From the sequence record PV245935.1: 64,000 bases of DNA, one strand, 5' to 3'. Positions 59,165-60,643 of this stretch are shown here, in pieces. Positions within the stretch are counted from its first letter, which is position 1, and the number at the start of each line of letters is the position of its first letter. The position numbers and the translations under genes are program-made. The stretch comes from Escherichia phage kaset. The notes under the pieces are model-generated. The model searched no databases. It worked only from the letters and a program-made list of their open reading frames with translations, and was not told the origin of the DNA.

Positions 59165-60643
59165 ATTTGCACTATGGGATTTGCACTATGAGTCAAGATT
59201 ATGTAGCAATGCCTGAAGACTTTGAAGACCCGCGATTTGCAGAGCATAATCAGGCATTATTCGATGAGTTCATTGACCTTGTTATTCAGGGCCATGACAT
59301 GCGCGCAGCTTTTGCACTAGTATTTGGCATGGAGGTTGCGACCGATAACTACACTGGCCAGCGAATCCTGTGCACGCAACGCAATCCGTACTACAAGATG
59401 CGCTACAAAAAGCGTATGGAAGAGATGCCATTGAAGGAATTGTGGAGCGTAAAGAGTTCCATCCACAATTTAGTGAAGCTTGTGCGTGATCCAGAAGTCG
59501 CGGCATCAGCCAAGCTTAATGCCATTCGTGAACTGAATATCATCTACGGCATCACGATGATTGATGAAAACGGCAATAGTAAAATGGGCCGTTCCATGGA
59601 CGATTTCTACAAGGATTTTGGAGAGGCAGCCAAAGAGGGTGAGCAATTCTCCCGCCACTAGCCAATTTGCACTATAAAACGGCCCTAGAACACATTTTCT
59701 CCACTTCTAGGGCCATCGGTAATACGACGGTGAATGCTGCAACCATAAACGCGTTAGAAAGTGTATTATTATAAGTCATCTTTTAGTCACTTTACGTAAC
59801 AATTTACGACCTTCCGCCGTCCAGTCGAACGACTCCACCAGCAGATTTGCACTATAACCTAAGACGATGCGCCCTTTCTCGTTATCGACCCGCCAACAAG
59901 TCTCGAATAGCATTCGATTTGCACTATTAACTATCACCGCAACGCGCGTTGGGTAAGCGCAATTTGCACTATGGTCGTAAAGGGATAAGGTGCGACCACT
60001 TCCGATGGACAACGTAGCGATGAGAATGAGTGTGTTCATAAGCCACCAATTTGCACTATGAAAAGCGACCCCGAAGGGCCGCCATTCGATTAGATGATCT
60101 GGAAGGTGTAGGATTTGTTGCCGAACTCAAAGTTCAAGCGCCCAGCTTCCTTAAGCTTCATACGGAAGCGAATGTGCTTGCTATCCGGTAAGCCCAGCGC
60201 GGCGAACGCTACGCGGACCGATTTGAACTCGCCTACACCCTCGACCATAACGCCGTTGCGCGTAAGACGCTTTTGCGCTACTTCCTTGTTGTCCCAACTT
60301 TTTGCAATACCTTCGCTATTCGAACGGCGATGGGAAGGAGTTCCATTTTGCACTACGCAATTTGCACTATCGTTTAGGCCGCTCTTAACGAAGGCTTCAT
60401 ACTCTTCGTCGGTCATCGCGTCGAGTTCTTCCTGGGTCGGCTCGGCCTTTTTAACGACCGCACGCGCCTTATGCGTTTTTACATCGCTGGACACTTCCTC
60501 GCGCGGCTTCGCGTCGGGGATGGGCGATTCGTTGGACGGCTCATCGAGCGCGTTTAAGGACTCGATTAACGCGATTACGCGAGTCTCGGCGGTACGGCGG
60601 TCCGCGAACTTTTTAATCGGCTTCGAACCGGAATTTGCATTAT
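59165..60643. repeat. dispersed array of conserved 11-12 bp motif (A)ATTTGCACTAT
   Basis: copies start at 59165, 59179, 59665, 59845, 59917, 59962, 60049, 60360 (exact) and 60346, 60633 (1-2 mismatches); related AAATTTGCAGTACACT at 62520 and 62617. Confidence 0.8.
59188..59661 (+). CDS. hypothetical protein (158 aa)
   Basis: ATG embedded in one motif copy (ATTTGCACTATGagt) and stop 3 nt before another; helical; function unknown. Confidence 0.45.
   Translation: MSQDYVAMPEDFEDPRFAEHNQALFDEFIDLVIQGHDMRAAFALVFGMEVATDNYTGQRILCTQRNPYYKMRYKKRMEEMPLKELWSVKSSIHNLVKLVRDPEVAASAKLNAIRELNIIYGITMIDENGNSKMGRSMDDFYKDFGEAAKEGEQFSRH

Follow-up and report, generated by a model that had tools for sequence, protein, structure and literature searches.

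The 64,000-nucleotide stretch of Escherichia phage kaset analysed here (sequence record PV245935.1; hereafter the window, meaning this whole stretch) belongs to a Wifcevirus, i.e. an E. coli/Shigella myovirus of ~68 kb, and harbours a dense array of the 11-mer ATTTGCACTAT around the gene of the small terminase subunit (terS). Our analysis identifies this array as a genuine conserved, strand-polar cis element of the direct terminal repeat (DTR) of the phage genome, kept by selection acting at the level of the DNA and not of the encoded proteins. As to the factor that reads it, we tentatively propose the small terminase itself.

A strand-polar motif array inside the terminal repeat

Eight exact copies of the motif and about five degenerate ones, every one on the plus strand, are spread over ~1.6 kb between positions 59071 and 60643 (Table 1). 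A previous sequence-only reading of this DNA had noticed at least ten copies within ~1.5 kb, and these turned out to be the eight exact ones together with one carrying a single mismatch (60633) and another carrying two (60346); three degenerate copies absent from its list (59071, 59152 and 59310) can now be added. The same reading was right in describing two tight pairs 14 bp apart, a copy overlapping the start codon of the gene at 59188-59661 (the ATG at 59188 takes its first two letters from the 59179 copy) and another one 3 nt past the end of this gene (the 59665 copy, which follows the TAG at 59659-59661). Copies 59152, 59165 and 59179 form a tandem triple, with members 13-14 bp apart, that runs into this ATG. 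The consensus in this phage is C-R-ATTTGCACTAT, and the core kept throughout the clade of motif-bearing relatives is ATYYGCACTAY.

The gene bracketed by the array, whose copies flank it, overlap its start, sit inside it and come after it, is terS. Its product matches the TerS of phage E217 (PDB 7UXE) in a phmmer search with E=9e-33, its AlphaFold model retrieves 7UXE as top Foldseek match followed by the TerS structures of PaP3 and NV1, and the same gene is annotated as terminase small subunit in phage Mansfield. To the right of terS lie three minus-strand genes, p87, p208 and p94, and eight of the about 13 copies are found past terS, six of them antisense within p87 and p208.

Enrichment of the motif was evident upon counting with up to one mismatch, which yielded 9 copies in the window versus 1.85 +/- 1.21 in dinucleotide shuffles (n=100; maximum 5; 0/100 reaching 9). 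Under the same threshold no match was found outside the array on either strand of the 64-kb window, and the minus strand had 0 matches over this whole length. The motif is likewise confined to one zone of the complete genome of phage Mansfield (68,120 bp, ~96% identical), with all 9 copies at up to one mismatch falling within 338-1807, so that a similar density all along the genome, which would have deprived the array of its meaning, is not what we observed.

The spacing of the copies is irregular (13-355 bp). Distances of 180, 72, 45 and 87 bp had been correctly reported as multiples of 3. Three of these copies share one frame of the minus-strand p87, encoding the tripeptide S-A-N, which accounts for part of the pattern; the rest is probably due to chance, as the two outer copies fall outside the p87 open reading frame. 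Helical phasing was assessed by a Rayleigh test at periods of 9.5-12 bp in nine phages, none of which exceeded the 95% null level and only two of which reached it; the spacings in Pantoea phage Kyle, which looked like multiples of 10.5 bp, were not significant in this test. A CRISPR interpretation, already discarded by the sequence-only reading, does not apply, nor does another tandem-array one, given the irregular spacing with no regular repeat-spacer period and the location of copies inside genes.

No Rfam covariance model matched 58600-62800 better than E=0.63. Among the matches listed, TTGCACTA-N(1-30)-TTGCACTA pairs in IMG/VR were chance hits only, except for the Wifcevirus fragment L113, and TTTGCACTA-N(1-30)-TTTGCACTA pairs in GTDB genomes were only chance hits; the lack of arrays in bacterial genomes or unrelated phages among the matches listed is weak evidence against a host-chromosome site. 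To our knowledge, the motif does not fit the sites of DnaA, IHF, Fis, LexA, marbox, NtrC/sigma-54, EcoKI, P1 ParB boxA or the lambda Int arm-type sites over more than 5-6 bases. In sequence it is also unrelated to the RecBCD signal Chi (GCTGGTGG), whose sites are found on their own in this zone.

The window is permuted and holds the DTR as a single copy, whose ends were placed with three independent records of relatives. The Mansfield and WFH records begin at the base equivalent to 58828 and that of WFC begins about there; on the right side, the end of the PhageTerm DTR annotation of Mansfield (1-3673) and the right end of WFH both map to 62497, and the WFC record ends at 62578. The repeat is present at both ends in WFH (3701 bp) and WFC (3784 bp), and a terminal repeat of ~3.7 kb has been reported by Korf et al. 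2019 (PMC6563267). The array thus lies within the DTR, 243-1815 bp right of the left physical end. In addition, stand-alone contigs of 3.3-4.4 kb with p208 occur in many public assemblies, several of them filed under E. coli or Salmonella; they include L010 (3983 bp; designations of this type are our own labels for sequences of relatives) and a contig of P0006 (3755 bp), and terS is present as well in the two that were examined. A terminal repeat with double coverage would give contigs of about this size if it assembled separately.

Conservation, Chi sites and selection on the DNA

The aligned parts of 58800-62700 are 92-97% identical to 28 GenBank phage records, and copies 59152 to 60049 are almost invariant across 12 Wifcevirus genomes. 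The three copies within p208 are absent from Eco4M-7, RCIP0319 and ECML-117, all of which have a divergent p208 allele. Beyond the genus, the ATYYGCACTAY core is kept on the same strand, in the same zone and in similar number (7-14) in eight further lineages whose TerS proteins show 40-70% identity (Table 2), with terS located within the array or at its left edge in every motif-bearing lineage. Altogether, ~100 motif copies in nine phages face 0 on the opposite strand of the zone.

Table 2. Motif-bearing lineages outside Wifcevirus. GCACTA was counted on the plus strand within the zone; Chi refers to top-strand CCACCAGC sites on each whole sequence, one of which lies outside the zone in L009 and one in L163.
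Lineage	TerS identity	GCACTA copies	Chi sites
L008	~68%	10	0
L161	54%	11	4
L162	52%	9	7
L009	50%	9	7
L163	48%	10	9
L010 (variant ATCCGCACTAY)	45%	7	2
Pantoea phage Kyle (L146/L147; exact DTR of 3603 bp)	44%	14	9 in DTR
Pantoea phage PA1 (whole genome)	40%	13 of 20 top-strand copies in 875 bp	7

The motif was not found in E217 and other Pbunaviruses, in Serratia phage MTx (which has a DTR), in Salmonella phage PCSE1, or in L165, L166, L169 and L171. The phages bearing it form one clade in a neighbour-joining tree of TerS, and this clade only is characterized by (Q/K/R)-R at TerS residues 64-65, where all other lineages have E-(S/A/H/R); the model places these two residues at the end of helix 56-65, in the helical N-terminal domain. 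In MTx, L166 and L169 the place held by the GCACTA array in the Wifcevirus/Kylevirus clade is occupied by 3-4 copies of the palindromic ATAAGCATGCTT beside terS, downstream of it in MTx (L011, 951-1093) and upstream in the metagenomic relatives L166 (656-768) and L169 (320-365).

Most relatives also have clusters of a second short word, the Chi complement CCACCAGC, on the strand of the motif and interspersed with it in the 250-2000 bp zone. The zone counts are nine in Kyle, eight in L163, seven each in L162 and PA1, six in L009 and four each in L161 and MTx; the clusters extend over 255-1972 in L146, 4861-6433 in L013, 323-1824 in L009, 1625-3322 in L162, 1821-3652 in L163, 165-1117 in L161 and 179-1276 in L011, and gather 7 of the 8 Chi sites of the whole PA1 genome and 4 of the 6 of MTx. 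Synonymous-codon resampling gave 11 observed Chi versus 0.6 expected, which indicates that codon choice keeps Chi as well. The orientation found here is the one that is active when RecBCD comes in from the left end of the genome, following the rule described in PMC12315714, where terminal Chi clusters were already known for P1 and for lambdoid phages such as LLS. The Chi clusters of these relatives are a new example of this phenomenon. MTx has Chi without the motif, whereas Wifcevirus has the motif with a single Chi and L008 with none, and thus the two signals are separable.

Evidence for selection on the DNA came from resampling synonymous codons 2000 times in terS, p87 and p208 of this phage, Kyle and PA1. 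GCACTA occurs 21 times on the plus strand of these genes versus 2.07 expected (0/2000 resamples reached 21, the maximum being 7), and 0 times on the opposite strand versus 0.46 expected. Within p87 only the copy at the N-S-A-N site (59917) is positionally orthologous across lineages, being present in 4 of 5 aligned distant relatives (degenerate in L010), and the others are placed differently in each phage. Turnover of positions together with a codon choice that keeps copies in genes on both strands indicates that selection acts on the DNA; since the copies are always on the plus strand although their host genes lie on both, the signal would be one on the DNA relative to the genome end, mRNA not being the target. 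In PA1 and L009 the flexible C-terminal tail L-H-Y-P-P-A of TerS is even encoded by ATTTGCACTAYCCACCAGC, that is, the motif followed by the Chi complement.

Candidate readers of the array

The sequence-only reading had offered three candidates: replication-origin iterons, pac-like or partition-like sites that a DNA-binding protein of the phage would occupy, and compact promoters. The location of the array inside the DTR near its left end and the identity of the bracketed gene as the small terminase favour the second, the other two being poor fits. The explanation that we put forward, with less than even confidence, is that the array consists of cis-acting TerS recognition sites serving both the initiation of packaging and the control of terS. 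Here we infer the binding of a protein, the identity of this protein as TerS and its purpose in packaging and autoregulation. Some 12 redundant, strand-polar recognition sites would act in cis on the terminal repeat; TerS oligomers would load on them just inside the left end of the repeat, thereby marking DTR DNA as packaging substrate and setting the direction of packaging (rightward, as terS), much as lambda cosB, SPP1 pacR or the adenovirus A-repeats do; bound to the triple, which lies between the -10 hexamer of terS and its start codon, TerS would also act as a repressor of its own gene. The two overlapping promoter-like sites preceding this triple read TTGAAC-17-TATAAT (59107-59135) and TTGAAT-17-TATAAT (59125-59153), both with a perfect TATAAT, and the TATAAT-triple-ATG layout is shared with L008. 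Consistent with this proposal, the copies lie near the physical end, beside and inside terS, and the array points in the direction of terS, as with cosB or pacR. A motif confined to one TerS clade, the only one with (Q/K/R)-R at residues 64-65, would also fit. The ATAAGCATGCTT repeats of MTx, L166 and L169 have the look that would be expected of lineage-specific TerS sites, and TerS dosage matters in E217 (reviewed in PMC9611059).

Several observations weigh against TerS as the reader. Purified E217 TerS reportedly did not bind DNA to an appreciable degree in vitro (reviewed in PMC9611059). The array is ~1.6 kb long, irregular and unphased, whereas the pac and cosB sites known so far form compact clusters of at most ~200 bp. 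The motif core is unchanged while TerS diverges to 40% identity, and the association of the motif with TerS residues 64-65 comes down to one evolutionary event. Three natural isolates (Eco4M-7, RCIP0319 and ECML-117) do without the three rightmost copies, and the tandem triple at the start of terS exists only in Wifcevirus and L008, Kyle, PA1 and L009 being without it. Furthermore, an inverted repeat (58753-58775 / 58890-58912; 23 nt, 87% complementary) surrounds the left cut of the DTR (58827|58828), its midpoint being ~5 bp away from the cut, and the left cut of Kyle (4144|4145 in L147) falls 5-6 bp from the centre of another of 34 nt (4029-4062 / 4238-4271), the arms differing in sequence between both phages. 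This arrangement is a likely recognition geometry for the left cut, and the inverted repeat could just as naturally be the site that the terminase recognizes, in which case the array would be left to another reader.

One such reader could be a DNA translocase or end-processing machinery for which the array would be a polar signal, either as a counterpart of Chi specific to this phage clade or as sites of a factor protecting or recombining the incoming left end. This we consider unlikely, and we hold the same view of the related idea that motif and Chi clusters jointly control degradation and recombination of the terminal repeat during the formation of circles or concatemers. The absolute strand polarity with respect to the DNA end, the irregular spacing with positions that turn over while their number is maintained, and a codon choice that keeps the motif as it does Chi would all be accounted for, as would the Chi clusters of the same zone and strand, oriented to be active for RecBCD from the left end. 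Invariance of the core in lineages with differing left-cut repeats also suggests a conserved reader. However, no enzyme is known for the motif, which bears no resemblance to any described Chi; motif and Chi are separable, as MTx on the one hand and Wifcevirus and L008 on the other illustrate; their co-location may only reflect that both need nearness to the left end; and Dda-like and UvsW-like helicases are annotated in these phages but no helicase-nuclease. A more specific version, in which ATYYGCACTAY is a second, clade-specific Chi-type signal that is read by a host or phage enzyme translocating from the left end, determines together with Chi the extent of resection of the end and the starting point of recombination between terminal repeats and has largely replaced Chi in the E. 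coli Wifceviruses, is in our opinion decidedly unlikely.

It is less likely still, though conceivable, that the copies are operators or roadblocks for a regulator other than TerS that shuts off a leftward early operon p94-p208-p87 and controls terS. The triple does lie between the -10 hexamer and the terS ATG, and eight copies are within the leftward operon. A candidate regulator is even encoded in the array: p208 has a confidently modelled helix-helix-hairpin, its winged-helix matches being not significant. We nevertheless rejected p208 as motif reader, since the presumed recognition helix of the protein, DSKHIRFRMKLK, hardly varies in phages without the motif, among them E217, MTx and PCSE1. 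No other regulator emerged: the genes that are shared with PA1 and absent from MTx, as a clade-specific reader gene should be, are mostly shadow open reading frames and small hypotheticals lacking Pfam domains, and gave no Pfam DNA-binding domain. Moreover, one would not normally expect operators to be strewn, strictly in one orientation, along 1.5 kb of coding sequence, and Kyle and PA1 have no copy at the terS promoter.

The direct repeats in single orientation, in a phage encoding a RepB-like primase and a VapE/D5-like helicase, would agree with iterons of a replication origin bound by this helicase-primase or another initiator; the P4 satellite phage has a primase-helicase of the RepB/VapE-D5 class, which works on short repeats at the origin. 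This seems improbable to us. Spacing of 13-355 bp is unphased and the positions are not conserved among relatives, the GC content is 44-51% across the array with no AT-rich unwinding element within it, and no DnaA box with up to one mismatch was found in 58600-62800. The primase/helicase pair is not the near neighbour it had been taken for, as its genes are located at ~46.6-51 kb, 8-12 kb from the array, and the copies are mostly in coding DNA; MTx and E217 share these replication genes and yet lack the motif. As for compact promoters that would confer phage-directed specificity on RNA polymerase, the motif has a superficial likeness to the MotA box of T4 (tttGCttta) and to CACTATA, the core of T7/SP6 promoters, and all copies point in one direction from near a genome end, as T7 early promoters do. 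Nevertheless, nothing outside the 11-13-mer is conserved and there is no fixed -10 or +1 partner downstream; most copies would produce antisense RNA into real genes and then meet a terminator; none occurs elsewhere in the genome, operon starts included; close relatives have no annotated phage RNA polymerase or sigma factor; and the repeat has strong sigma-70-type promoters of the ordinary kind. Promoter function is thus extremely improbable.

Boundary elements, neighbouring genes and known systems

A 16-mer, AAATTTGCAGTACACT, that occurs at 62520 and 62617 had been regarded as related to the motif. Both positions are correct, but it does not belong to the motif family: its resemblance to the array, ATTTGCA, is peculiar to this lineage and GTACACT alone is conserved. 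An interpretation of the 16-mer as a split motif copy was also dismissed, as local alignment of the sequences following the left and the right end was no better than in shuffled controls. It forms part of a bipartite element, GGTACTT-N(about 17-20)-(A/C)GTACACT(A/G), located just right of the right boundary and usually in two copies, of which only GTACACT(A/G) and the upstream GGTACTT are conserved in relatives. The first copy is ~23 nt from the cut in both phages with known ends, the sequence at this distance being AAATTTGCAGTACACTAATCA in this phage and CAATTTCACAGTACACTAATCA in Kyle. The element is also found in L008, PA1, L162 and L163, and in degenerate form in L009 and L010; its coordinates are 62498-62640 in the window, 3604-3650 in L146, 8630-8700 and 9090-9160 in L013, 5388-5504 in L163 and 4770-5110 in L162.

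Table 1. Features of the array region, with coordinates in the window; copies refer to the motif ATTTGCACTAT.
Feature	Coordinates	Strand	Remarks
DTR, 3670 bp	58828..62497	+	single copy in permuted window; ends from relatives' records
Degenerate copy TTCAGCACTAT	59071..59081	+	varies within genus
Two overlapping sigma-70-type promoter-like sites	59107..59153	+	consensus scan only; directly upstream of motif triple and terS
Degenerate copy ATTCACACTAT	59152..59162	+	first of tandem triple; overlaps -10 hexamer 59148-59153; invariant in 12 Wifcevirus genomes
Exact copy	59165..59175	+	invariant in 12 Wifcevirus genomes
Exact copy	59179..59189	+	overlaps terS ribosome-binding region and ATG at 59188
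terS, small terminase subunit, 157 aa	59188..59661	+	homology, fold match, Mansfield annotation
Degenerate copy TTTTGCACTAG	59310..59320	+	within terS, encodes F-A-L; orthologous copy in L008; invariant in 12 genomes
Exact copy	59665..59675	+	begins 3 nt past terS stop codon
GC-rich hairpin GGCCCTAGAA...TTCTAGGGCC	59681..59715	.	between convergent terS and p87; annotated terminator in WFC and WFH
p87, small predicted secreted protein	59776..60039	-	signal-peptide-like N terminus, two conserved Cys; hosts 3 motif copies
Sole Chi site of the window (GCTGGTGG on - strand)	59835..59842	-	conserved in 12 genomes
Exact copy	59845..59855	+	within minus-strand p87; immediately after Chi complement at 59835
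Exact copy	59917..59927	+	within p87, N-S-A-N site
Exact copy	59962..59972	+	within p87
Exact copy	60049..60059	+	between p87 and p208
p208, conserved protein	60090..60716	-	phrog_4730; hosts 3 motif copies
Two-mismatch copy TTTTGCACTAC	60346..60356	+	within p208; lost in Eco4M-7, RCIP0319, ECML-117
Exact copy	60360..60370	+	within p208; lost in Eco4M-7, RCIP0319, ECML-117
One-mismatch copy ATTTGCATTAT	60633..60643	+	within p208; varies within genus
Right-boundary element copy 1 (AAATTTGCAGTACACT)	62520..62535	+	starts 23 nt right of right DTR end; outside motif family
Right-boundary element copy 2	62617..62632	+	same 16-mer AAATTTGCAGTACACT

The hairpin at 59681-59715 is probably a bidirectional terminator, and a promoter-like site near 61177-61150 (TTTACT-16-TATAAT) probably drives p208 and p94; this site is divergent from two copies of a strong sigma-70-type promoter block (~45 bp, CTTTACTTCTTCGTACACT...TATACTT.TTTATATCGAGA; 61215-61260 and 61612-61660) that precede the small plus-strand genes 61305-61607 and 61714-62004. 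The p87 protein shows 29-57% identity in L008, L009, L010, PA1 and Kyle. Orthologues of p208 adjoin terS in all relatives, including E217 (Pbunavirus), MTx and PCSE1; the protein starts with a helical domain, continues with a disordered linker of acidic/basic composition and ends in a C-terminal helix-helix-beta-hairpin. The model of this C-terminal part (residues 133-207) reaches a predicted local distance difference test score (pLDDT) >90 from about residue 160, being lower before, and its fold matches are winged-helix proteins only, at non-significant E values of 0.2 or higher; one family member has a weak NUMOD-like Pfam match. The modelled domain may be a winged-helix DNA binder.

Farther from the array, the minus-strand gene 43865-44710 encodes a 281-aa protein whose first ~200 residues are of Lys/Ala/Glu-rich low complexity (histone-H1-like) and are followed by a short globular C-terminal domain; this gene, which adjoins that of the Dda-like helicase, is responsible for an AT skew of -0.40 at 44-45 kb. 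The region ~39-44 kb is homologous to 48.3-53.1 kb of Mansfield, where a cluster of ThyX, an HAD phosphatase, a short-chain dehydrogenase, a glyoxalase-family protein and a UDP-galactopyranose mutase is annotated, which may be a pathway of DNA-base modification.

By class, we would assign the array to the repeated protein-recognition arrays near a phage genome end; a search with the motif string retrieved nothing relevant, and we found no prior description of the element in the searchable literature. Lambda cosB (R3-R2-R1, bound by gpNu1) and SPP1 pacL/pacR (bound by G1P) are repeated short TerS sites inside the packaged end, by or within terS, with an asymmetry that sets the direction of packaging and, in SPP1, with sites overlapping the terS promoter region. 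These systems comprise 3-7 geometrically constrained sites over ~100-200 bp in cos or headful phages, whereas ~12 unphased candidate sites are distributed here over 1.6 kb inside an exact terminal repeat of 3.7 kb. The adenovirus A-repeats (TTTG-N8-CG) offer a parallel in about seven redundant, orientation-dependent short repeats, at a few hundred bp from the left end, that direct polar packaging, but belong to a eukaryotic virus with unrelated proteins and span ~200 bp. The T7 terminal repeat resembles the array in having short-word arrays inside an exact-end DTR, and differs in a repeat length of ~160 bp, in the tight tandem arrangement and in the position of terS outside the repeat. With the terminal Chi clusters of P1 and LLS (PMC12315714) the array has in common a short word over-represented near an end with strict polarity and irregular spacing; the motif, however, is not Chi, of which the window has only one site. 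Iterons such as those of P1, R6K and P4 ori/crr are initiator-bound direct repeats, as the iteron reading would have it, but they come with regular spacing, an adjoining AT-rich region and initiator gene, and conserved positions, none of which the array has.

How phages with long exact terminal repeats recognize and cut their DNA is poorly understood, and we know of no small-terminase recognition site defined for a phage of this kind. The array is a concrete candidate cis element for a whole clade comprising Wifcevirus, Kylevirus and uncultured relatives, distantly related to the Pbunavirus phages used in therapy. Should TerS read it, the array would be the natural DNA substrate of a TerS family whose solved member showed no binding in vitro, and the rebooting or engineering of these phages would require it. 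With a reader other than TerS, our findings would reveal a conserved polar signal beside Chi clusters, which would be the more interesting case.

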